Shown here: piece after piece, positions 5,149-41,801 of the stretch
Numbering within the stretch: position 1 is the stretch's first letter
Layout: every line of letters starts with the position of its first letter
From: an uncultured Faecalibacterium sp.
GTDB taxonomy: Bacteria; Bacillota; Clostridia; Oscillospirales; Acutalibacteraceae
DNA: 64,000 nucleotides
Direction: 5' to 3'
NCBI GenBank assembly: GCA_964480405.1
Contig: CAYZOU010000005.1
Coordinates: 39,117 to 103,116 of the forward strand
Position numbers and translations under genes: made by a program
The notes under the pieces: generated by a model
Database searches by the model: none
Told to the model about the DNA's origin: nothing
What the model saw: the letters and a program-made list of their open reading frames with translations, nothing else

Positions 5149-5220
5149 GTATTGCTACGATATTATACTAAACTGCGGTCATATTGTCAACAAATATTTC
5201 ACTTTCGGTATGAATTTGAA

Positions 5221-7999: not shown

Positions 8000-8002
8000 A
8001 TT

Positions 8003-9256
8003 TCAGCCTCGCTTGATATCAGCGCCTATGCTTTTGAGCGCCTTTTCTATTTTTTCATATCCTCTGTCGATATGATGGATCTCCGTTATCTCTGTCTGTC
8101 CCTCGGCTCTGAGCGCCGCAACTATCAATGCACCGCCGCCTCGAAGATCGGTCGCCTGTACCTTTGCGCCGTATAGCTTCTTCACTCCGTCAATGACAGC
8201 GACCTTATCCTCAATTCTGATCTTCGCTCCGAGCCTTAAAAGCTGGGGTACGTGTTTAAATCTCGATTCGAATATGTTCTCGACTATTACACTCGTTCCG
8301 CTTGCCTTTGTCGCCATTGCCATTACGGGCGCTTGCGCATCTGTCGGAAAGCCCGGATACGGCATGGTTCTGACGTTTCTTATCGGATTCAGTCCGTCCT
8401 TGACCCGTATTCTCAAAGAGTCCTTTCCGACATCAAGGCGACAGCCCGCCTGTTCAAAAACAGATATTACACTCTTGAGATGAAGCGGAATAATGTTTTC
8501 TATAAGCACGTCTCCTCCTGCCGAAGCGACACATGACATATATGTTGCGGCGGTTATTCTGTCGGGTATAACGCTGAATTCACAGCCGTGAAGTCTCTCG
8601 ACACCGCATATGCTCACAGTGCCGTCTAAGCCTGTTTTTATATCGGCTCCGCACTTATTGAGAAATTCGACAAGCACCGCTATTTCGGGCTCTCTCGCCG
8701 CATTGTAAATGTTAGTCACGCCGTCGGATACGGCGCAGGCGAGGATTATATTTTCCGTCGCACCGACCGAGGGGAACGGCAGATTTATATTCGCTCCCGA
8801 AAGCTTTCCGCTTCGCTTACAGCTGAGCTTTCCGTAGCTTTCGTCTATCTCCGCTCCAAGCTCTCTCAAGGCTGACAAATGCAGATCTATAGGTCTAAGT
8901 CCGATCTCGCACCCACCGGGCGTATACATATCGGCATGACCCAATCTCGAAAGCACCGAGCCTAAAAAGACGATCGACGACCGCATCTCACGCATCAAAT
9001 TTTCGGGTATGTCGCAACGGGTCAGATGAGAGGGATCTATGAGCACCGTGTCGCCGTTTCTCTCGACATCGCAGCCCAAATATCTGAGTATTTTCACAGC
9101 CGCCGTGACATCGGTCAGCTGTGGGCAGTTATGTATCACGCACTCATCGCCCGTCAAAACCGTTGCCGCAAGAAGCGGCAGACAGCTGTTCTTTGAGCCG
9201 TGCACCTTTATTTTTCCCTCAAGTCTGTGTTCGCCTCTGACAATTATGCTTTCCAC
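8003..9256 (-). CDS. murA: UDP-N-acetylglucosamine 1-carboxyvinyltransferase
   Basis: 417 aa. Motifs GSKNSCLPLLAA and catalytic-loop GGCEIGLRPIDLH are present, in dcw context. Confidence 0.93.
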   Translation of the reverse strand: MESIIVRGEHRLEGKIKVHGSKNSCLPLLAATVLTGDECVIHNCPQLTDVTAAVKILRYLGCDVERNGDTVLIDPSHLTRCDIPENLMREMRSSIVFLGSVLSRLGHADMYTPGGCEIGLRPIDLHLSALRELGAEIDESYGKLSCKRSGKLSGANINLPFPSVGATENIILACAVSDGVTNIYNAAREPEIAVLVEFLNKCGADIKTGLDGTVSICGVERLHGCEFSVIPDRITAATYMSCVASAGGDVLIENIIPLHLKSVISVFEQAGCRLDVGKDSLRIRVKDGLNPIRNVRTMPYPGFPTDAQAPVMAMATKASGTSVIVENIFESRFKHVPQLLRLGAKIRIEDKVAVIDGVKKLYGAKVQATDLRGGGALIVAALRAEGQTEITEIHHIDRGYEKIEKALKSIGADIKRG

Positions 9257-9327
9257 TCAAAACACGACCTTTCAACCTTAGATGTTGTATTCTATGCCGA
9301 AAAATCGCTTTAAGTGATTGTTTGCGT

Positions 9328-10452
9328 TTATTTGTTCTCAGCGAGTGAAACTATGATGTCGGCGATATTTTTCTTTGCGTCGATCATCGCCATTGCTCTT
9401 GCGTTTTCTCCTATTCTCTCTCTTTTCTCTCTGTTATTGACAAGCTCGTCGACTTCCTTTATCAGCTTTTCGCCCGTCAGATCCTTTTCCTCTATCATTA
9501 TTGCGGCGTCGTTATTGACAAGCGCCATTGCGTTATGATATTGATGATTCTCGGCGACATTCGGTGACGGCACTAATATTGATGCCTTTCCGAGAGCTTC
9601 GATCTCGCTGAGTGATGAAGCGCCCGCTCTGCATACGACTATATCAGCCGCACTCATGCATACGTCCATGTCGCTTATGTATTCTCTTATTTCAATGTTA
9701 TTATGCTTATCAAGGTCAACGCCGTTCTCTTTTATTTTATCGGGTACCCAAAGTCCGTAGCTGCCCATAGAATGTAAAAAGCGGTAGTTCTTTTCGTCGG
9801 CACGCTTTGAAATAAGCTCGACCGCCGCCTCGTTTATGGCTCTTGCACCGAGTGAGCCGCCCATTGAGAGTATAAGCACCTCATCGTCCTTGATACCCAT
9901 TTCGGCTCTCGAAAAGTCTCTGTCGGCTCTGAGCATTTCTCCCCTTACCGGCAGACCCGTGAGTATACATTCGTTTTTAGGCTCTAAATATTTTTTTACG
10001 CTGTCAACGGTTATCATCACTCGGTCAACGTGTTTCGCCAACGCCTTATTTGTCACACCGGGGAATGCGTTCTGCTCATGGATAGCTGTCGGGATTCCCA
10101 TTTTATATGCTGTTCTCAAAACAGGACCGGACACATATCCGCCGAAGCCGATAACGACGTCGGGGTTAAATTTCTTGATTATCTTTTTAGTCTGAAATGA
10201 TGACGTCAGAAGATAAAAAAGCGTTCTGATATTCTTGGCTATATTCTTTAAGCTCAGCTTTCTTTGAAAGCCGGATATTGATATAGTTGCAAAGTCAAAG
10301 CCTGCCTGAGGGACAAGCCTTGACTCCATTTTATCCTTTGTTCCGACAAAGAGGATCTCGCTGTCGGGATATCTTTCTCTGATCTCACCTGCAACGGCAA
10401 GCGCCGGATTTATATGTCCGCCCGTACCGCCGGCGGCAAATAGAAATCTCAT
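9328..10452 (-). CDS. murG: Undecaprenyldiphospho-muramoylpentapeptide beta-N-acetylglucosaminyltransferase
   Basis: N-terminal AAGGTGGHINPALAV, 374 aa, dcw context. Confidence 0.93.
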   Translation of the reverse strand: MRFLFAAGGTGGHINPALAVAGEIRERYPDSEILFVGTKDKMESRLVPQAGFDFATISISGFQRKLSLKNIAKNIRTLFYLLTSSFQTKKIIKKFNPDVVIGFGGYVSGPVLRTAYKMGIPTAIHEQNAFPGVTNKALAKHVDRVMITVDSVKKYLEPKNECILTGLPVRGEMLRADRDFSRAEMGIKDDEVLILSMGGSLGARAINEAAVELISKRADEKNYRFLHSMGSYGLWVPDKIKENGVDLDKHNNIEIREYISDMDVCMSAADIVVCRAGASSLSEIEALGKASILVPSPNVAENHQYHNAMALVNNDAAIMIEEKDLTGEKLIKEVDELVNNREKRERIGENARAMAMIDAKKNIADIIVSLAENK

Positions 10453-18270: not shown

Positions 18271-18759
18271 TTAATCCCCGTTTTTGAGAGCGTTAGCCTC
18301 TCTCATTCTCTTTTCGACGTTCGCTTCTCTCATGAGCGCATCAACGTCTTTGACTCTTCTGACGTTTTCTTTCGATTTTTCTCTGTATGCCTTGAAGCTG
18401 TCTTCGTTCCAAATTTCAACGTGGCGTCCCATACCTATTACTAAAGCCGAGTCTGTCAAGCCGACACTTTCTCTCTGTTCGACGGGTATGGAAATTCTTC
18501 CCTGATTGTCTATCGTCACATCATAGGTCTCAGCGAAAAGGTCGGTCAATATATCATCTTCACCGAGCATATCGCCTATTCTGCTCTCAAGCTCGGCAAA
18601 CTTTCTTTCAAACTCCGCTACTGAATAGCACTGTATGCAGTTTTTATTTTCGGAAACGGTGAGAATAAACTCGCTTCCGAGTGAATCTCTGAATTTAGCA
18701 GGGACAAACATTCTGTTTTTCTGATCAAGCTTGTTGATATATTTGCCTGTGAGCAACAT
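18271..18759 (-). CDS. mraZ: Transcriptional regulator MraZ
   Basis: Two SpoVT/AbrB-like halves (DQKNRMFVPAKFR, DNQGRISIP). First gene of the dcw cluster. Confidence 0.92.
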   Translation of the reverse strand: MLLTGKYINKLDQKNRMFVPAKFRDSLGSEFILTVSENKNCIQCYSVAEFERKFAELESRIGDMLGEDDILTDLFAETYDVTIDNQGRISIPVEQRESVGLTDSALVIGMGRHVEIWNEDSFKAYREKSKENVRRVKDVDALMREANVEKRMREANALKNGD

Positions 18760-18858
18760 GACCCTGCCTCCTCTCTAATTCACCTTTTTCCACCTTTTTA
18801 GTTTACTGTTACACCATTATAGCTTGTACAGCCACCAATGTCAATAGTAATACTTCAC

Positions 18859-22683: not shown

Positions 22684-22841
22684 TTCAAGATCTCCTTACA
22701 CACCGCTGTAAATCATAAATTTCGCATTGGTGTATTCATACCTGTTAAATATATATTGTATAATTTCACCGGCGAATTGTCAAGCAATAGAAAAAAGTCG
22801 ACAAATTTCTGCTTTTTTTCTTAAAATTTTACAATTTTAAC

Positions 22842-22880
22842 AAACAAATGTTTGCTTTTTATGAAATGGTATGTTATACT
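22842..22880 (+). promoter_or_regulatory. lexA promoter with an overlapping LexA-box-like palindrome
   Basis: Palindrome cAAACAAATGTTTg (22842-22853) overlaps -35 TTGCTT (22852-22857). A 17-nt spacer leads to the extended -10 TGTTATACT (22872-22880). Confidence 0.6.
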
Positions 22881-22956: not shown

Positions 22957-23550
22957 ATGAATGATTTAAGTGAAAACCAAGTTAGGATACTTGAATTTTT
23001 AAAAGAAAGACTTTCCGTGACAAATGTTCCGCCCTCAGTCAGAGAAATATGCTCAGCTGTCGGCTTAAAATCGACATCTTCGGTTCAGAACAATCTCGAT
23101 GCTCTTGAAGAAAAGGGCTATATTCAGCGTGACCCCATGCTCAAGCGTTCTATCAGAATAATGGGTCAAGCCGAGAATGTTCACCATGTTCCTCTTTTGG
23201 GTACGGTTACCGCCGGTGCGCCTATTCTCGCCGTTGAACAAATCGAGTGCTATCTCCCCTATTCCGGTTACGTTTCAAGCGACAAGCCTCTTTTCGCTCT
23301 GAGAGTCAGAGGTGAAAGTATGCTCAACGCCGGAATATTTGACGGAGACATAATCTTCGCCGAGCAGACACCCGTCGCAAGAAACGGTGATACGGTAGTC
23401 GCTCTCATAGGAGAAGAAGCCACCGTCAAGACATTTTATAAGGAAAACGGTCATTTTCGTTTACAGCCGGAAAATGATACATATGAGCCGATAATCGTTG
23501 ACGAGGTTGCGATATTGGGTAAGGTCGTTGCGGTTTTGAGATATCTTTGA
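22957..23550 (+). CDS. lexA: LexA repressor
   Basis: Winged HTH (VREICSAVGLKSTSSVQNNLDALEEKGYI), AG cleavage site (VTAGAP) and S24 peptidase Ser/Lys motifs (GESMLNAGI; ATVKTF). Start chosen at ATG 22957 with a GGAGGA RBS. Confidence 0.95.
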   Translation: MNDLSENQVRILEFLKERLSVTNVPPSVREICSAVGLKSTSSVQNNLDALEEKGYIQRDPMLKRSIRIMGQAENVHHVPLLGTVTAGAPILAVEQIECYLPYSGYVSSDKPLFALRVRGESMLNAGIFDGDIIFAEQTPVARNGDTVVALIGEEATVKTFYKENGHFRLQPENDTYEPIIVDEVAILGKVVAVLRYL

Positions 23551-29119: not shown

Positions 29120-29232
29120 AAAACAGAGTAGGTTTGAGTGCGTTAAGTTCCGTCTGAACGGGGAGTTGTCAGATGGCCGAAAACGGTTCAGCATAGTTGA
29201 GCCCTTGCGATACTCTTTCCGCATCCCGCTGT
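29120..29232 (+). promoter_or_regulatory. THF (tetrahydrofolate) riboswitch aptamer
   Basis: Conserved THF-motif blocks are recognisable: cAGAGUAGg...GUGCGUUAAGU...GAACGGGGAGUUG...CGAUACUCU...CCGCAUCCCGCUG. It lies upstream of a FolT-type ECF S-component gene. Confidence 0.85.
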
Positions 29233-29259
29233 AAACAAGAAAGATCGGACAAAATATCC

Positions 29260-29296: not shown

Positions 29297-29830
29297 ATGC
29301 CCGAAAATAACAAAAAAAGAAGTCAGCGACCGTTATATGAGCTGATAAGTCTTGCGATGCTGACTGCGCTTTATGTCGTCATGAACAGGTTTCTGTCCGT
29401 TTCGGCTTGGAACATCAATTTCGGCTTTTCATTCGTTGCGACCGTGACAGCCGCCGCACTTTTCGGTATTCACGGCGGAATGGCAGTCGGAGGCTTAGGT
29501 GACTTCATAGGCGCTGTGCTTTTCCCGAAGGGTGCATATTTCCCCGGCTTCACGCTTTCCGCAATGCTCATCGGTGCGGTTTACGGTGCGTGTTTGAAAA
29601 AAAGCACCGAATTTCGCAGTGTTGCTCTCGGCGCTGTTTTGTCACAGCTTATCAGCAGTCTGATACTCAACTCCGTGTGGGTATCGGTGCTTTACGGCAG
29701 TCCGTTCAAGACTGTTATCATATCCCGTCTGCCGCAGTTTTTGGCTGTGACGGCTTTACAGCTTGTGATTTCGCCTTTGATAGTCAAGGTGACGGGGATA
29801 ATTAAAAAGGAATTGAAGATTTCGGCGTAA
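29297..29830 (+). CDS. folT: Folate-family ECF transporter S component
   Basis: 177 aa, about six TM helices. The sequence is FolT-like (LTALYVVMNRFLSV...) and a THF riboswitch lies upstream. Confidence 0.85.
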   Translation: MPENNKKRSQRPLYELISLAMLTALYVVMNRFLSVSAWNINFGFSFVATVTAAALFGIHGGMAVGGLGDFIGAVLFPKGAYFPGFTLSAMLIGAVYGACLKKSTEFRSVALGAVLSQLISSLILNSVWVSVLYGSPFKTVIISRLPQFLAVTALQLVISPLIVKVTGIIKKELKISA

Positions 29831-35132: not shown

Positions 35133-35315
35133 TCACTTAAACATATACTGGATATCGTCCATAAGCGATTCCATTGTCTTTAATGATTTCTTAGCCTTCT
35201 TTTTAAGCATTCTCTTTGTGCTTCCGCTCATCATCGTGCTTGAAGCGAGAGCACCTGCACCGCCGACTGCAAGACCTATGCCCATACCTGTCATTATACC
35301 GGAAATCTTTTTCAT
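35133..35315 (-). CDS. Small glycine-zipper membrane protein, function unknown
   Basis: MKKISGIMTGMGIGLAVGGAGALASS followed by a basic tail. Weakly supported. Confidence 0.45.
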   Translation of the reverse strand: MKKISGIMTGMGIGLAVGGAGALASSTMMSGSTKRMLKKKAKKSLKTMESLMDDIQYMFK

Positions 35316-35473
35316 GTTGCCACTTCCATTCAAAATTTAGTTCAGCGAGCTGACGGATATATTTTTACCGAAAAGTTAAAATATATTACACGGTATCGGC
35401 AATATTGAAAAAATTTTGCAGCTATGATACAATAGCAAGGCTCAACAAATATTTTAAGGAAAGAAATGATGAT

Positions 35474-35968
35474 ATGTCGAAATTGAATATAGTTTTAGTC
35501 GAGCCCGAAATTCCGCAGAATACGGGAAACATCGCACGTACCTGCGCCGCAACGGGAGCGGCTCTCCACATCATAAAGCCCATGGGCTTCAGCGTTGACG
35601 ACAGATATTTAAAGCGAGCGGGGCTCGACTACTGGCATCTGCTTGATATTACTTATTACGAGTCGCTCGAACACTTTTTCTCTCAGGTACACGGAGAATT
35701 CTTCTATTTCACAACGAAAGCCCTTAACCGACACTCCGATATAAGCTATCCCGAAAACAGCTATCTCTTTTTCGGCAAAGAGACTAAGGGCTTGCCCGAA
35801 AGGCTTTTAAAAAATAATCCCGATCGCTCAGTTAGAATACCGATGATTGATGAATCGAGAAGTCTCAATCTTTCAAACTCTGTGGCTATCGGTGTTTATG
35901 AGGTTTTGAGACAGTGGGATTATCCCGATTTGCTTTGTAAAGGTGAACTGCATAACTTAAAATGGTGA
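35474..35968 (+). CDS. trmL: tRNA (cytidine/uridine(34)-2'-O)-methyltransferase TrmL (SpoU/TrmH family)
   Basis: NIVLVEPEIPQNTGNIARTCAATGAALHII and C-terminal SLNLSNSVAIGVYE. Confidence 0.88.
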   Translation: MSKLNIVLVEPEIPQNTGNIARTCAATGAALHIIKPMGFSVDDRYLKRAGLDYWHLLDITYYESLEHFFSQVHGEFFYFTTKALNRHSDISYPENSYLFFGKETKGLPERLLKNNPDRSVRIPMIDESRSLNLSNSVAIGVYEVLRQWDYPDLLCKGELHNLKW

Positions 35969-35978
35969 ACATTTGTTC
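35967..35978. promoter_or_regulatory. Perfect LexA (Cheo-type) box GAACATTTGTTC
   Basis: Exact GAAC-N4-GTTC palindrome, 10 nt upstream of the -35 of the following promoter. It overlaps the trmL stop codon. Confidence 0.65.
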
Positions 35979-35988
35979 GAAAAAACTA

Positions 35989-36017
35989 TTGACAACTTAA
36001 AATTTCGCTCCTATAAT
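35989..36017 (+). promoter_or_regulatory. Consensus sigma-A promoter of the phage-like operon
   Basis: TTGACA, exactly 17 nt, TATAAT. Confidence 0.8.
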
Positions 36018-36023
36018 ATAAAT

Positions 36024-36150
36024 GTGGGCTGCACGGAGCCTGCATTTAGGGTGCATATCAACCGATCGCACGGGGTCGGTGCGTACCCGAAAAGACGGAA
36101 GTCAACTAAAAAACAGCTTTCACAAGGATTTGTGGAGGCTGTTAATTATT
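36024..36150 (+). promoter_or_regulatory. Structured 5' leader with two GCACGG-loop hairpins and a terminator-like hairpin
   Basis: Hairpin gggcu-GCACGG-agccu. A gggugc/gcguaccc stem encloses accgauc-GCACGG-ggucggu. Then aacagc..cacaa-ggat-ttgtg..gctgtt is followed by AAUUAUUUUA. Confidence 0.45.
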
Positions 36151-36168
36151 TTAGGAAAAGGAGAAAAC

Positions 36169-37323
36169 ATGGATTACAAGTTAAATATTTCATCACTCGA
36201 AACGCAAGTCGTCGAAGTCAAGCAGTTCGAGCATAACGTGACAAAGGTCTCGGCAACATTCAATGCCGAGGATATTCACGAGGATCTCATCGACCTCACG
36301 CCCTGCATTTTGCTGTCCTTCGGCGAGAAAATCACCAAGGATAACGGCTTGAGCTACATCATCGCCGACAACACAGCCGGCATAAGCTGGCGGATCTCAC
36401 AGGAGTGTACTCAAAAGGCGGGTACATATTTCGCCCAGTTCGCATTCATCGACAAGGACGAAACCATTAAGGCGTACACGGACAAATTCATTTTCAGGGT
36501 CTTGCCGTCGGTGGACATTCAAAAAGCGGTATTTGAATATAAGCCGAGATTCCTCGAAGCATTTTGGAACAAGATCGTCGACAAAATCAGCGAAATGCTG
36601 CCCAAAAAGGTCAGCGAGCTCGAAAACGATGCGGAGTATATCAGCACAACAAACACTCTGTCGGAATATGCTAAAACGACGGAGGTCAACAAGGCGCTCG
36701 AAAGCTACAGCACAACTGCGGAAATTGACGAAAAGCTCACCGACTATGCCACCCACGGCGACACTACCTCGGAAATATATGAATTTTACAGAACGAGGAA
36801 CGCTCTATACACTGCAACTTGCAATGTTCCGCACAAGGTCCAAGAGACGACAATGCTCGGTATGACATTCATTCCCGATTCGACATCGACCTACTTTCAG
36901 AGCATACTCATTGACAAGTTTTCCGATTTGACAAATTTCAAGGTCTCCGACTTTATAATAAACATTTACACAATGGAAATCAAATCAACGGTTTCCGCTA
37001 CTGTGAAGGTTGAAGTCAATGTCGGAAGCTCCGGGTCGGGCATTCTCGTCTTCACCAATGCCGATGTGCTTGTGAACGATGAGCCTTCAAATGCTTTCAT
37101 ATCTTATGAAAATGTGCTGGGCGTTCCCCGTGTCAGATACAGCAGGCTGAAGACAAACGTGGGCATCATTCCCATTTCTTCAAAGAGCAGATATCTCGGC
37201 ATAACCACTCCGCCGTATATAAAGAATATCAAGATCACGTTCGTGCCGACAGATCCGACAGCACCGACGACCAACTTTCTGTCCAGCTTTCAGATCAAGG
37301 TGTCGGGCAAAAAAATAAACTAA
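36169..37323 (+). CDS. Phage tail-fibre / baseplate (BppU-like) receptor-binding-type protein
   Basis: The N-terminal domain pattern resembles BppU_N-type domains, from my recollection. It is followed by the ELENDAEYIS motif and Y-x-x-T-x-E-[VI]-[ND] repeats typical of Firmicutes phage fibres. Holin and lysin genes follow. Start at 36169 with an AAAGGAG RBS. Confidence 0.5.
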   Translation: MDYKLNISSLETQVVEVKQFEHNVTKVSATFNAEDIHEDLIDLTPCILLSFGEKITKDNGLSYIIADNTAGISWRISQECTQKAGTYFAQFAFIDKDETIKAYTDKFIFRVLPSVDIQKAVFEYKPRFLEAFWNKIVDKISEMLPKKVSELENDAEYISTTNTLSEYAKTTEVNKALESYSTTAEIDEKLTDYATHGDTTSEIYEFYRTRNALYTATCNVPHKVQETTMLGMTFIPDSTSTYFQSILIDKFSDLTNFKVSDFIINIYTMEIKSTVSATVKVEVNVGSSGSGILVFTNADVLVNDEPSNAFISYENVLGVPRVRYSRLKTNVGIIPISSKSRYLGITTPPYIKNIKITFVPTDPTAPTTNFLSSFQIKVSGKKIN

Positions 37324-37339
37324 ATCAGGAGGGATAACA

Positions 37340-37549
37340 ATGACAGATTTTATTAAGGCAAGACCGTGGCTCTACCGTGGATTGCGAACATTTTTTCAGG
37401 CTTTTTTAAGTACACTTGCAGGTCAGCTGCTTCTCGTAGATCAAAGCGGAATTGATGAAAAGCTGATATTTTCGGTTCTCGTTTCGTCAATGGCGGCGGG
37501 GCTTGCGGCGCTCATGAACACCGATTCGGCGTCAAAAGCCGATGACTAA
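37340..37549 (+). CDS. Holin-like protein, two TM helices
   Basis: 69 aa with TM1 RTFFQAFLSTLAGQLLLV and TM2 LIFSVLVSSMAAGLAALM, then a charged C-terminus. Located immediately upstream of the endolysin. Confidence 0.55.
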   Translation: MTDFIKARPWLYRGLRTFFQAFLSTLAGQLLLVDQSGIDEKLIFSVLVSSMAAGLAALMNTDSASKADD

Positions 37550-37576
37550 TAATATATTATGAGGAAGGGAGATAAT

Positions 37577-38260
37577 ATGTCAGTAAAAAAATATTCTTTG
37601 AAAAAAGACGGAGATAAGAGCTTATCAAAGCATTTTAAAGTCAGAGAGTTCAGAAGCAAGGACGGCGCTGACAAAATATATATCGAAACAAATCTTATCG
37701 AAGCTCTCGAATCAGTACACAGTCATTTTGACTGCTCGAAAATAATAATCATATCGGGCTACCGCACACCGAGTCACGACAAAGCGGTCGGCGGAAGCGG
37801 CGGCGGAAGTCACACTAAGGGCAAAGCCGCCGACTTTGTGGCATACGACAAAAACGGCAAAAAGATCTCATCAAAGGAGGTCTCGCTGTATCTTGAAGAT
37901 ATAGGCGTATTGGGCATAGGCTACCGCTCCGGCGGCATCGAGACCAGCACTCATTTTGACGTCGGATACCGAAAGAGAAAGTGGTACGGCGACGAAAAAA
38001 AGAGCACCGCCACCTCTATCGGCTCAAGCTTCTACAACTATTTCGGTATAAAGTATAAGCAAAACATGGCGATAGCGTCGGTCAATATAAGAAAAGAGCC
38101 GTCACTTTCCGGAACGAAGGTCGGCTTATTGAAGATCGGAGAAAAAATCTCTGTCTCAAACTGTGACAAGATAAGCTCCGACGGCTATGTTTGGAGCAAG
38201 GTTAAGCTCGGAAATGCTCACTACTGGATAGCCGACCGATATTTGAAGGAGGTCAAGTGA
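37577..38260 (+). CDS. Endolysin: M15-family zinc peptidase (YcbK/VanY-like) with a C-terminal SH3-like cell-wall-binding domain
   Basis: HTKGKAADF and STHFDV metal-ligand motifs. The C-terminal MAIASVNIRKEPSLSGTKVGLLKIGEKISV...WSKV is SH3b-like. RBS is GGAAGGGAG. Confidence 0.8.
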   Translation: MSVKKYSLKKDGDKSLSKHFKVREFRSKDGADKIYIETNLIEALESVHSHFDCSKIIIISGYRTPSHDKAVGGSGGGSHTKGKAADFVAYDKNGKKISSKEVSLYLEDIGVLGIGYRSGGIETSTHFDVGYRKRKWYGDEKKSTATSIGSSFYNYFGIKYKQNMAIASVNIRKEPSLSGTKVGLLKIGEKISVSNCDKISSDGYVWSKVKLGNAHYWIADRYLKEVK

Positions 38261-38481
38261 TGAGCGAAACCGTCATTGTTGCGGTGATATCGCTTGTCGG
38301 AACGCTGTTCGGCTCCGTTATCGGAATCCTCGCCTCAAACAAGCTGACTGCGTACCGCATAGAACAGCTTGAAAAGAAGGTCGACAAACACAACAGCGTT
38401 GTTGAGCGGACATTTCAGCTTGAAGAAAAGGTCAAGGTTGCGAATCATCGGATCGAAGATTTAGAGAAAAAGGTCGGTTGA
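38260..38481 (+). CDS. Small N-terminally anchored coiled-coil protein (lysis-cassette accessory, XhlA-like composition but inverted topology)
   Basis: TM helix VIVAVISLVGTLFGSVIGILA, then a heptad coiled coil (IEQLEKKVDKH...RIEDLEKKV). The start overlaps the lysin stop (TGATG) and GAAGGAGG lies 6 nt upstream. Confidence 0.6.
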   Translation: MSETVIVAVISLVGTLFGSVIGILASNKLTAYRIEQLEKKVDKHNSVVERTFQLEEKVKVANHRIEDLEKKVG

Positions 38482-38486
38482 TAAAA

Positions 38487-38552
38487 CCCGCCTGCGAAGC
38501 AGGCGGACGGTGAATTATACGCCACCGCACTCGACGAAGTCGGGTGCGGTGG
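38487..38552 (+). repeat. Family A repeat (leading hairpin plus a second hairpin), probably acting as the operon terminator
   Basis: cccgcctgc-gaa-gcaggcgg, then ccaccgcac...gtgcggtgg. Confidence 0.7.
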
Positions 38553-38607
38553 CTATCTTTCGCCGTGAAGCTTGCCAAAAGATTCCGCCGAAACAGCCAA
38601 ATCGCAC

Positions 38608-38637
38608 TTGACCCGACGGAAAATATGTAGTAATATA
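38608..38637 (+). promoter_or_regulatory. Candidate promoter for the 38802 operon
   Basis: TTGACC, 17 nt, TAATAT (cttgacccgacggaaaatatgtagtaatat). Confidence 0.45.
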
Positions 38638-38801
38638 TAAATGATTAGAATTGCGGATTTCTTTTTTTCGTACGGTTAAGCGGTCGATAGCTCAAGCCGA
38701 CTGCTCAAAGCTCAACTTGAGCGTACCGAAAAATATTAAAATAAGCCGCTTAAAACATTTTGAAAGGCAGAGGGTCGGCTTCATGACCCGAAAACATAGA
38801 T

Positions 38802-39491
38802 ATGAACGGTATATATAAAGGTGAAATTCTCAACGTAACAAGCTTTGACAAGGGCTTCGTGTTCGCTGTCAAAAAAGAAAACGATAAGGGCGTTTTGATG
38901 GTCAAATTTTACGGCTACGATGCGGTGAACGACAAGTTCACTTCAATCAAGAAGAACGTCTATTTGAAGATAAAATTCGGATTTGAATATGAAGACATGG
39001 TCGAAACCCTCGGCGACTACGTTTCTTGCGACACCTCAACGCTTTCCGACGGCAGACTCATGGCTATCTATCCCGGCGGCGAGTATTACATTTTCAATCC
39101 CGACGGCACTGTCTACCTCTCGTCACAGCTGACATATAAAGGCTCGGCGGCTTGCGGTATAGTCCCCGACGGCGATTGCATTTGGTGCGTTGTCCCCGAT
39201 GAAAACGCCATCATAAAATATAACCCGACCGATGCCAGAATCCCCATGCGTATAGGCGGCGGTGCGGCTACAACTTTCAGCAGACCGTGCTCCATTTCGA
39301 AGGACGGCGACATTCTCTATGTCTGCAATCACGGCAGCAGAAAGATCAGAGCCTACAACACGGCAACAAACAAGGTCAAGGATTTCATGAGCTTTGATGA
39401 AAGAGTTTTCAAATATATTATCAGCGGCAAGCGTAAATTTGTTTGGCTTAAAAGCGGACTTTACGAGGCTGACGAGAACAGGAGTGATTAA
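38802..39491 (+). CDS. Hypothetical protein with beta-propeller/NHL-like repeats, no signal peptide
   Basis: Repeated D-G-x-[IL]-[YW]-V segments (DGDCIWCVVPDEN, DGDILYVCNHGSRKIRAY). No convincing RBS at the listed ATG, so the start is uncertain. Confidence 0.5.
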   Translation: MNGIYKGEILNVTSFDKGFVFAVKKENDKGVLMVKFYGYDAVNDKFTSIKKNVYLKIKFGFEYEDMVETLGDYVSCDTSTLSDGRLMAIYPGGEYYIFNPDGTVYLSSQLTYKGSAACGIVPDGDCIWCVVPDENAIIKYNPTDARIPMRIGGGAATTFSRPCSISKDGDILYVCNHGSRKIRAYNTATNKVKDFMSFDERVFKYIISGKRKFVWLKSGLYEADENRSD

Positions 39492-39493
39492 GC

Positions 39494-39784
39494 ATGAAAG
39501 ATTTTTTAAAGCTTGATGTTATTGTTCAAAGGATATCAAAAAAGCTAAAAGGCAAGCATAAGATTACAAAATTAATTAAGAGTATCAGCTTTGCGTGGTT
39601 TATTTTCACGATCGTTGCGACCGTTTGGTCACTCATACCCAAAGAAGAAAAGATGCCCGAGGTTGACGGTGCTGAGCTTCTTGCGGCGCAGCTTGAAAAA
39701 GAAAGTGCCAAGCTTGAAGAATCGGAGTCAACCGATACAGATGCAATTATAACTGATTGCGCTGAGCCCGTTGCGGTTATTTAA
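39494..39784 (+). CDS. Small membrane protein, function unknown
   Basis: One TM (FAWFIFTIVATVWSLI) and an acidic tail. Its ATG lies 2 nt after the upstream stop. Confidence 0.5.
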   Translation: MKDFLKLDVIVQRISKKLKGKHKITKLIKSISFAWFIFTIVATVWSLIPKEEKMPEVDGAELLAAQLEKESAKLEESESTDTDAIITDCAEPVAVI

Positions 39785-41451: not shown

Positions 41452-41685
41452 TTATGCGACGAAGTTGCACTCTTTGCGATTTATCTCAGGTCGTTTTACA
41501 TTTACCTGATTTGCCGAGCGTTCGACAACGTGTATATTCTTTTCTCTCTTAGCTTGCGCTCTGCTGTCTCTTATGACCTCGATGATCTTATCTTCAAGGT
41601 CGATGAGTCTGTCCTCATTTTTTAATGCCCATATTATGAGCGGTGTGAAAACCGAAACGAAAGCTATAAATAAACCTAATGACAT
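41452..41685 (-). CDS. 77-aa N-terminally anchored membrane protein under LexA-box control (candidate SOS cell-division inhibitor)
   Basis: TM helix LGLFIAFVSVFTPLIIWAL followed by a charged 55-aa tail. RBS is AGGAGG. Three LexA boxes lie in its promoter region. Confidence 0.65.
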   Translation of the reverse strand: MSLGLFIAFVSVFTPLIIWALKNEDRLIDLEDKIIEVIRDSRAQAKREKNIHVVERSANQVNVKRPEINRKECNFVA

Positions 41686-41706
41686 AGTAATTACCTCCTA
41701 AAATTA

Positions 41707-41801
41707 GAACATTTGTTCCTTACAAGTGCTATTATATCAGATTTTTTACGTTTGTCAATACAAATGTTCGATAAATTTCGAGTTTTTTCGAAAATTTGTT
41801 C
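41707..41801 (-). promoter_or_regulatory. SOS-type promoter: TTGACA-16 nt-TATAAT flanked and overlapped by three LexA boxes
   Basis: On the minus strand, -35 TTGACA is at 41753-41758 and -10 TATAAT at 41731-41736. The boxes are GAACAAATGTTC (41707-41718, perfect), GAACATTTGTAT (41758-41769) and GAACAAATTTTC (41790-41801). Confidence 0.75.

Follow-up and report, generated by a model that had tools for sequence, protein, structure and literature searches.

The 64-kb stretch of DNA from an uncultured Faecalibacterium analysed here (called the window throughout) carries, directly after the tRNA methyltransferase gene trmL, a compact cassette of four genes (g1 to g4) that is probably a LexA-repressed, attenuator-gated autolysis operon of phage origin, a locus that has become fixed at the 3' end of trmL and is inherited vertically in one clade of uncultured Oscillospirales. 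Its presence suggests that these bacteria keep a self-lysis programme, and the operon seems coupled, through its promoter region, to the SOS response of the host. The first-pass annotation of this region, made from the letters of the window, had left two readings side by side: the last remnant of a prophage late operon, or a domesticated, SOS-controlled module driven by a host promoter and retained together with a receptor-binding-type protein. Purifying selection and the conservation of the non-coding elements disfavour the former. The latter is the alternative favoured here, with SOS control graded as probable. Comparisons were made with all fetchable loci that contain a relative of g1, amounting to 16 distinct sequences. 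The features on which the argument rests are the following, in nucleotides (nt) and amino acids (aa):

35474-35968, plus strand: trmL (tRNA 2'-O-methyltransferase), the upstream anchor of the module (NCBIfam TIGR00185, 201 bits, cut-off 190.6)
35967-35978, no strand assigned: putative LexA-type operator GAACATTTGTTC, of the form GAAC-N4-GTTC (from sequence and conservation)
35989-36017, plus strand: sigma-A-type promoter TTGACA-17 nt-TATAAT (from sequence; kept in relatives)
36019-36048, plus strand: leader hairpin P1 with the loop GCACGG (RNA fold)
36049-36088, plus strand: leader hairpin P2, an outer stem with an inner hairpin whose loop is again GCACGG (RNA fold)
36112-36152, plus strand: intrinsic-terminator-like hairpin (36112-36143) and U-rich tract (terminator scan)
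36169-37323, plus strand: g1, 384-aa baseplate-type adhesin as judged from its predicted fold
37340-37549, plus strand: g2, 69-aa holin-like membrane protein (hydropathy, PHROG)
37577-38260, plus strand: g3, 227-aa predicted endolysin with Peptidase_M15_3 and a C-terminal SH3_3 domain (Pfam, PHROG)
38260-38481, plus strand: g4, 73-aa protein with a membrane anchor and a coiled coil, of a phage lysis-module family (phrog_1863)
38487-38553, plus strand: terminator hairpins at the operon end (the terminator scan gives 38521-38553; an extra GC hairpin directly 3' of the g4 stop is visible in the sequence)
22957-23550, plus strand: lexA, the presumed repressor (NCBIfam TIGR00498, 201 bits, cut-off 110.95)

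The anatomy given in the first-pass annotation was recovered in every particular. The box ends 10 nt upstream of the promoter at the coordinates listed, and its first bases overlap the stop codon of trmL. The leader, put earlier at about 150 nt, measures 151 nt from the end of the -10 hexamer to the ATG of g1 (36169), and the four tightly packed open reading frames (ORFs) follow it, the TGA of g3 and the ATG of g4 having one base in common. The identities of trmL, tsaD, rimI and lexA were confirmed by NCBIfam models, and with them the flanks of the cassette, trmL on one side and tsaD-rimI on the other.

Comparison with the relatives showed the order trmL-box-promoter-leader-g1-g2-g3-g4, directly after trmL, in all 16 distinct loci; the four-gene unit is conserved there and not variable. 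These loci belong to metagenome-assembled genomes (MAGs) and to contigs from metagenomes, which bear the labels Acutalibacteraceae, Oscillospiraceae, Ruminococcaceae or 'uncultured Faecalibacterium', and as they were found through g1, the search is blind to lineages without it. The downstream neighbours vary: tsaD is found in the closest relative only, and elsewhere the unit is followed by GDPD/metK, by a GH31 gene or by an inverted pdaA-like/ispE block (L012). Since the neighbours differ while the unit is intact, the unit stays together through rearrangements. Concerning phage genes, the earlier observation that no structural or integration genes lie nearby extends to the relatives. Up to 10 kb on either side, where the contigs reach that far (several extend for only 3-5 kb), are free of genes for integrase, repressor, capsid, terminase or tail proteins, and no prophage gene was seen in the window or in the relatives' flanks, attachment repeats not having been searched for. 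None of the flanks seen contains tail tube, sheath, baseplate or capsid genes; this search did not extend to the remainder of the genomes. A full prophage at this site was not encountered in any relative, only the four genes being present after trmL (16/16).

Identity to the window amounts to 83-96% for TrmL, 65-98% for IspE, 77-100% for g4, 70-100% for g2 and 59-96% for g3, while the N-terminal domain of g1 ranges from 36 to 93% and its C-terminal domain from 24 to 92% or is undetectable. The pairwise distances of g1 to g4 follow those of TrmL (Pearson 0.75-0.86), no frameshifted cassette was found, and the ratio of nonsynonymous to synonymous substitution rates (dN/dS) lies between 0.00 and 0.27 for all four genes. 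Judged from these sequence comparisons, the history of the cassette is one of vertical inheritance under purifying selection, that is, of domestication and not of decay. The closest full-length relative, L042, departs from the pattern at one point. When its positions 8001-9381 are compared with 36169-37549 of the window, dS is 0.57-0.98 for g1, 0.47 for g2 and 0.33 for g3, against 0.18 for trmL and g4. The g1 allele and part of g2 therefore seem to have been replaced in L042 by recombination with a more distant lineage, and such an exchange of g1 alleles is typical of receptor-binding proteins.

The proposed link to DNA damage rests on the box. The LexA operator GAAC-N4-GTTC of Bacillus subtilis and clostridia, for which the clostridial variant GAAC-N4-GTTT is also on record, is identical to the motif of the box (PMC4234289), in agreement with the first-pass annotation, which had named this motif as the core of the LexA operator in Firmicutes. 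It had also pointed to a related palindrome in the promoter of the lexA gene of the window, and the variant box CAAACAAATGTTTG is indeed found there at 22841-22854. Perfect GAAC-N4-GTTC sites number four in the window against 1.17 expected, which is weak evidence taken alone. Perfect TTGACA-17-TATAAT promoters number three against 0.01 expected, the one of the cassette being the sole 12/12 match in 35300-38900. The other two (5162-5190 and 18816-18844, minus strand) lie upstream of a tRNA gene and of a 162-aa ORF (18271-18759) that looks mraZ-like by its sequence.

The comparative data are more telling. In all 16 four-gene loci a perfect box starts 20-22 nt before the -35 hexamer, and both hexamers are kept, the -10 reading CATAAT in four of them. 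Box, hexamers and terminator are base-identical between the window and L040, although dS exceeds 1.4 in this comparison. In L010, L044 and L046-L048, in which trmL has a different end, the box is still there, a few bases away, as CGAACAAATGTTCG. Among 57 loci, the 12-mer GAACAWWTGTTC occurs at the cassette promoter only, apart from a single occurrence at the gene of a 77-aa protein in L042. The 12-mer of the cassette box is found again in the window at 41707-41718, within another promoter. Given these data, a chance origin of the box seems untenable. From the centre of the box to the expected start of transcription it is about 50 nt, and LexA bound at this upstream site would cover an A-rich region resembling an UP element, not the hexamers themselves. 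The operon is apparently under direct LexA control, and a DNA-damage switch in front of the cassette is likely.

The second promoter with this 12-mer in the window belongs to a gene (41452-41685, minus strand; region 41452-41801) upstream of rimI-tsaD, the 77-aa product of which has a membrane segment at its N-terminus. Its promoter is TTGACA-16-TATAAT (41758-41731), and the box GAACAAATGTTC (41718-41707) stands between the -10 and the ribosome-binding site, so that the same operator core occupies the classical repressing position here. A box with one mismatch lies at 41801-41790 and another with two mismatches, at 41769-41758, abuts the -35 and shares its first base. The protein is conserved in L042 and matches no Pfam, NCBIfam or PHROG family; in its features it resembles the small membrane proteins induced by SOS, such as YneA and SosA. 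The idea that it might be a paralogue of g4 was dropped, as the two show no similarity.

The leader, which the first-pass annotation had passed over, is, by predicted folding and comparison, a conserved structured RNA that ends in a nearly invariant intrinsic terminator. The z-score of its fold is -6.4 in the window and ranges from -3.4 to -8.3 across 15 leaders. The terminator hairpin (36112-36143), followed by UAAUUAUUUU, ends 17 nt before the ATG of g1 in the window. Its lower stem, ACAGCTTTC ... GCTGTT, is invariant in the 15 leaders, its upper stem varies with pairing kept, and every one of the 15 has the motif, as a single copy in the locus and at no other place. At the position of P1 a hairpin of 6-13 bp occurs in 15/15 leaders with three to five pair types per stem position; these counts were anchored on the loop and taken from individual folds, which makes them pairs by construction, and they show a constant hairpin, not a formal test of covariation. 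They replaced a sequence-based alignment of P1, in which the pair counts were muddled. The loop GCACGR, read by eye, is common to P1 and P2 in 11 of the 15 leaders, and a subgroup (L004, L007 and L008) has other loops, namely TGACCGAT in P2 and an ACGCCG-like one in P1. A pair of identical loops hints at an RNA-binding partner that is dimeric, or at an element of the put type.

No known riboswitch or RNA family was recognised in the leader: Rfam 15 gave no match at gathering thresholds over 35900-36250 and only two matches at chance level (E-values of 5.9 and 7). The terminator motif was also followed into viral contigs (IMG/VR), where the single match, inside a coding region, was put down to chance. 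No other terminator lies between the stop of trmL and the leader hairpin, which would therefore also have to end transcription of trmL and keep it out of the lysis genes. The hairpin would thus have two roles, to attenuate the operon and to insulate it from trmL read-through. No convincing conserved pairing that competes with the 5' half of the terminator, as an antiterminator fold would, was seen by eye. The put element of phage HK022 and the EAR element of B. subtilis confer antitermination, and the twin hairpins might work in the same manner or might merely stabilise the transcript. In either case we read the design as that of a high-threshold switch, in which the strongest possible promoter would be combined with a repressor and an attenuator.

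Turning to the proteins, g1 had been likened to phage fibre or baseplate proteins, and structure prediction bears this out. Its sequence has no Pfam match at E ≤ 1 and no PHROG match, the family profile has no sequence match in the PDB, and homologues form only 16 clusters among 5.8 billion proteins. The family alignment falls into three parts, a conserved N-domain (about residues 1-150), repeats and a fast-evolving C-domain; in the model, residues 1-114 resemble the N-domain of BppU and residues 213-384 form a beta-sandwich like that of lectins or carbohydrate-binding modules (CBMs). The AlphaFold2 model has a predicted local distance difference test score (pLDDT) of 76.6 over the full length and 93.9 over residues 1-114. 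In Foldseek, the modelled N-domain matched chains of about 291-299 aa in 4v96, the baseplate of phage TP901-1, with a template modelling score (TM) of 0.69-0.76 (root-mean-square deviation 3.3 Å at TM 0.76), and baseplate chains of NF5 and 80alpha with TM 0.56-0.62. From their length, the 4v96 chains are presumably BppU. Matches in BFVD bear the names of BppU-domain, neck-passage and baseplate proteins, while the C-domain matches legume lectins and the CBM2 of the evolved Dit of phage J-1. On the strength of the model, g1 is a baseplate-type adhesin. The repeats between the two domains consist of KVSELEND followed by 11-residue L-x-EYAKT-x-EV units in about two to nine copies (counted by eye), and these EYAKT repeats suggest a helical stalk and a trimer. 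No evident signal peptide was noticed by eye, no predictor having been run, and neither Dit nor Tal nor a receptor-binding (BppL) partner lies near g1 in any locus. A longer version of g1 (433 aa, from an ATG at 36022) was rejected because most homologues start at M-x-Y-x-L and because the indels in the leader are not multiples of three.

The ELEND/EYAKT motif is widespread in phage fibres and in surface proteins of Bacteroidales. Very long arrays of the phage-fibre repeat KVSELENDA-x-YLTEHQSL-x-(D/E)YAKK were seen in proteins of 950-1350 aa from L013, L014 and L016 (Bacteroidales MAGs of the Paludibacteraceae), which have hydrophobic N-termini resembling signal peptides. Because of these arrays, the motif is not diagnostic of phage origin.

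The assignment of g3 as an M15 peptidase with an SH3-like domain was upheld, both Pfam matches being above their cut-offs (Peptidase_M15_3, 52.9 bits against 23.2; SH3_3, 27.8 bits against 27). It also matches a PHROG endolysin family (4e-24), and the zinc ligands in H79-x6-D86 and H126-x-D128 are invariant in 14 orthologues; a search by sequence among solved structures gave no match. By these criteria g3 is predicted to be an endolysin. Its hydropathy reveals neither a signal nor a signal-anchor-release (SAR) segment, and a membrane lesion would therefore be needed for it to reach the wall. The description of g4 as an anchored coiled-coil protein likewise agrees with its N-terminal membrane segment and coiled coil. 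It matches phrog_1863 at 6e-21, and no other gene of the cassette is as well conserved. Its homologues (50-72% identity) were found in 65 phage records, the hosts of which include Enterococcus, Streptococcus, Blautia and Faecalibacterium. In the four records inspected (phiEf11, Montmirail, 858 and MT836489) the gene is unannotated, with tail or fibre genes on one side and the holin-endolysin pair on the other. This context points to g4 as an accessory protein of the lysis module.

Regarding g2, the size and the holin-like character proposed in the first-pass annotation were retained, and its two transmembrane segments turned out as one clear (residues 42-58) and one borderline (residues 17-33). 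The gene lies directly upstream of g3 and matches phrog_4316 at 8e-5. A word-based search retrieved 25 clusters only, all within the clade of the cassette, and a profile search of 1.84 billion representatives retrieved 195 remote relatives. Ten of these were sampled; several match the holin family phrog_443 (2.5e-6 to 4e-4), several match phrog_4316, and one has a weak match to Phage_r1t_holin (1e-3). We consider g2 likely to be a holin.

These parts can be joined into one mechanism. In the undamaged cell, LexA would occupy GAAC-N4-GTTC, a site that, with the A-rich bases behind it, fills the region immediately before the -35 hexamer of a promoter of maximal strength. Residual starts or read-through from trmL would mostly be stopped at the terminator in front of g1. 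Sustained DNA damage would remove LexA, the consensus promoter would fire, and the transcripts that pass the attenuator would yield g1 to g4. The holin-like g2, probably together with the anchored coiled-coil protein g4, would permeabilise the membrane, the M15/SH3 endolysin g3, which carries no signal, would reach the wall and cut it, and the ensuing lysis would release the cell contents, including the signal-less adhesin g1, perhaps with some benefit to the population.

Several observations weigh against this explanation. The usual repressing position of an operator, over the core promoter or the transcription start, is not the one found, as the box ends 10 nt before the -35; from this upstream position, with its centre near -50, repression may be only partial. 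The terminator is predicted to stop SOS-driven transcripts as well, and neither an antitermination factor nor an alternative fold was identified. Concerning the phage origin of the parts, g1 had no match among 50,697 phage genomes in tblastn, and its matches in viral (IMG/VR) and metagenome contigs cover the ELEND/EYAKT repeat region only. No relative of g2 was found in the same phage genomes by tblastn or in IMG/VR with its profile, and its holin call rests on size, position and weak transitive homology. The relatives are all metagenome assemblies, and a suicide operon would have been retained for long with no evident benefit.

A further difficulty comes from a sister lineage. The TrmL search reached two more distant contexts, of which L056/L057 (TrmL 76% identity) has pgk-tpi after trmL and neither module nor box. 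In L054/L055 (TrmL 82%), trmL is followed by a perfect box, GAACAAATGTTC, then 9 nt and TTGACT-16-TATAAT, and the leader of L054 contains a different canonical terminator at the same place, GGCAUCUUC...GAAGAUGCC with U6. A g2 homologue that overlaps a g4 homologue by 8 nt comes next (L054 6490-7080, L055 5586-6173), and then rpsB-tsf. This module has neither g1 nor an endolysin. The constant core accordingly comprises operator, promoter, terminator, g2 and g4, with g1 and g3 either lost in the L054/L055 lineage or added in the four-gene lineage, and because the endolysin is missing, wall lysis is perhaps not the core function.

The two-gene variant is one reason for considering a module for membrane stress or secretion, which is unlikely in our estimate, although it fares best among the alternatives. 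Here g2 and g4 would form a core that depolarises or permeabilises the membrane after SOS induction, leading to arrest, TisB-like tolerance or non-lytic export, and g3 and g1 would add only local opening of the wall and a cargo, as in type 10 secretion. Besides L054/L055, where box, promoter, terminator, g2 and g4 occur together and g1 and the endolysin do not, this would account for g4 and g2 being the most conserved genes of the cassette and would give g1, with no evident signal peptide, the exit route that it would need; systems of a holin, an endopeptidase and an accessory protein are known to release proteins (PMC10847048). Set against this, g3 looks like a complete endolysin with a wall-binding domain, has invariant catalytic residues in 14 orthologues and is under strong purifying selection, and the L054 lineage could encode an endolysin elsewhere. 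The present data fit lytic and non-lytic release alike.

The cassette might instead be a locus that supplies fibre and lysis functions in trans to a tailocin, a gene transfer agent or a resident prophage with its structural genes at another site of the genome, as in the gene transfer agent of Rhodobacter capsulatus, where tail-fibre and lysis genes occupy separate loci. We hold this to be less likely again. The N-domain of g1 has the fold by which BppU-type proteins dock to siphophage baseplates (TM 0.76). Its conservation far exceeds that of the C-domain, which is what binding to a conserved partner would lead one to expect. The C-domain and the allele as a whole behave like a receptor-binding protein (dS of g1 in L042, 0.57-0.98 against 0.18). 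However, no structural gene was found within 10 kb on either side in those contigs that reach so far (several stop at 3-5 kb) or in the 64 kb of the window, and the two-gene variant does without g1.

More speculative, and in our view doubtful, is the idea of a tail-less 'release weapon or signal', in which a fraction of the cells would lyse after sustained DNA damage in order to free the lectin-like g1. The released protein would act on the glycans of neighbouring cells, masking phage receptors, agglutinating or marking kin, or working as a bacteriocin. The C-domain would diversify and recombine like that of a receptor-binding protein, and the timing of release would fall to a new cis-acting leader RNA, the twin GCACGR hairpins with the invariant terminator, acting as a factor-dependent antitermination switch and not as a passive attenuator.

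Finally, an inert remnant, the functionless last piece of an old prophage at trmL with a palindrome due to chance or to a non-LexA element, would fit the clear phage relatives of g3 and g4, the phage baseplate fold of g1, the place of such modules at the end of phage late operons, the 3' ends of tRNA-related genes as common integration sites and the box upstream of the -35, outside the classical repressing position, but it is very improbable, given four frames intact in every lineage (dN/dS of 0.00-0.27 with dS saturated), a non-coding box, promoter and terminator that are better conserved than the coding sequence, a unit that holds together through rearrangements of its flanks, and a 12-mer that is unique per locus, recurs at the promoter of a candidate SOS gene and has a variant at lexA. 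A role in sporulation (mother-cell lysis), brought up by the neighbouring pdaA-like gene, was rejected on account of the sigma-A consensus promoter.

Other features of the window deserve a brief record. Between the cassette and tsaD lie two ORFs of 229 aa and 96 aa (38802-39784), the sole family match being a weak one of the first to phrog_22523 (3.5e-4); they were found in the window and in L042 only and are absent at that position in the other relatives. Between the gene of a pdaA-like deacetylase and trmL there is a glycine-rich ORF of 66 aa (35133-35333, minus strand; a 60-aa product is called in relatives), which is kept in nearly all relatives with 58-100% identity and has no family match. 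Additionally, a tetrahydrofolate (THF) riboswitch was detected at 29122-29233 (66.5 bits; gathering score 36), upstream of the gene for a 177-aa membrane protein (29297-29830), whose counterpart in relatives is the S component of an energy-coupling factor (ECF)-type transporter.

Phage lysis genes kept by their hosts are known in few models, namely the pyocin and Alp systems of Pseudomonas, PBSX of B. subtilis and type 10 secretion, where they have been connected with vesicles, DNA release, toxin export and biofilm. If the favoured explanation, an SOS-controlled autolysis operon, is true, the idea extends to strictly anaerobic, uncultured gut Clostridia, and in an unusually stripped-down and ancient form of four genes and no particle, with apparently direct LexA control and kept between lineages in which synonymous sites have reached saturation. 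Should antibiotics or inflammation trigger SOS autolysis in abundant gut commensals, this would bear on the release of DNA, antigens and vesicles in the gut. Operator, consensus promoter, structured leader and terminator together span about 200 nt and lend themselves to tests in other hosts with no need to culture the organism, the two-gene and four-gene versions amount to a natural experiment on the core function, and the orphan adhesin raises the question of what a baseplate protein does with no baseplate.

Among known systems, the late module of PBSX has the gene order xepA-xhlA-xhlB-xlyA, and PBSX is induced by DNA damage. The cassette resembles this module and those of skin and SPbeta, four-gene late modules in which a two-domain beta-sandwich protein comes first and a holin and an endolysin are found along with a small protein of the membrane or coiled-coil type (PMC6834076). 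In contrast, the PBSX-type cassettes are located inside defective prophages with full structural modules and phage regulators, their gene order differs from that found here, where g4 comes last, and in our case a host-type promoter with a putative LexA box and an attenuator would drive the genes directly. A relation of g1 to XepA received no support from sequence, the profile having no PDB match, and XepA (presumably 6I56 and 6IA5) is absent from the top 50 Foldseek matches in the PDB.

In Pseudomonas, the lysis genes are controlled through the LexA-like repressors PrtR and AlpR together with an activator or antiterminator, and no LexA box is known on the lysis promoter. The likeness of the cassette to the pyocin Hol/Lys genes and to AlpR-AlpA-alpBCDE of Pseudomonas aeruginosa consists in chromosomal, phage-derived lysis genes, which in the known system lyse a subpopulation after DNA damage and set its contents free (PMC4834629, PMC12796719). 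The differences are that the host is Gram-negative, that the pyocin genes are joined to tailocin structural genes and that a BppU-like adhesin is missing.

Colicin operons run from an SOS promoter through toxin, immunity gene and terminator to the lysis gene, under direct LexA control of a strong promoter. As in the cassette, the first gene would be that of the released protein, the lysis functions come after it, and a terminator inside the operon restricts expression. They are, however, plasmid-borne, and their lysis protein is a small lipoprotein, not a holin with an endolysin, whereas in the cassette the terminator precedes all genes, g1 has no recognisable toxin domain and there is no immunity gene.

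As for type 10 secretion, ChiX of Serratia is an M15-type L-Ala-D-Glu endopeptidase, and none of these systems is known to be LexA-controlled. Much as the cassette would, the ChiWXYZ system of Serratia and that of Yersinia entomophaga release proteins that have no signal by means of a holin, an endopeptidase that cuts peptidoglycan and a further membrane protein as accessory, and in Yersinia the release takes place through lysis of specialised cells (PMC10847048). They differ in being Gram-negative systems with spanins, the cargoes of which are chitinases or Tc toxins. BppU and BppA of the lactococcal P335 phages (TP901-1, Tuc2009) share with g1, as far as its model goes, the fold of the N-domain, a helical linker of trimer type and a carbohydrate-binding beta-sandwich (PMC4742702). 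Unlike these proteins, g1 has no sequence match to them, has no Dit, Tal or BppL nearby and belongs to a host operon with lysis genes.

Finally, the two-gene variant (L054) resembles tisB/istR of Escherichia coli and other SOS-induced small membrane toxins, where a LexA box precedes small membrane proteins able to collapse the membrane potential, but there is no sequence relation and no evident antisense RNA, and g2 and g4 come from phage lysis-module families. What sets the cassette apart from PBSX, the Pseudomonas systems, the colicins and type 10 secretion is a stand-alone four-gene host locus with an apparent LexA operator on a consensus promoter, a leader terminator and an adhesin of predicted BppU fold with no baseplate. 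No description of it was found in the literature. Its components and the general idea are already known. What is new lies in the wiring, in how old the conservation is and how far it extends among uncultured gut Clostridia, and in the orphan adhesin, the RNA of the leader and the variant with two genes.

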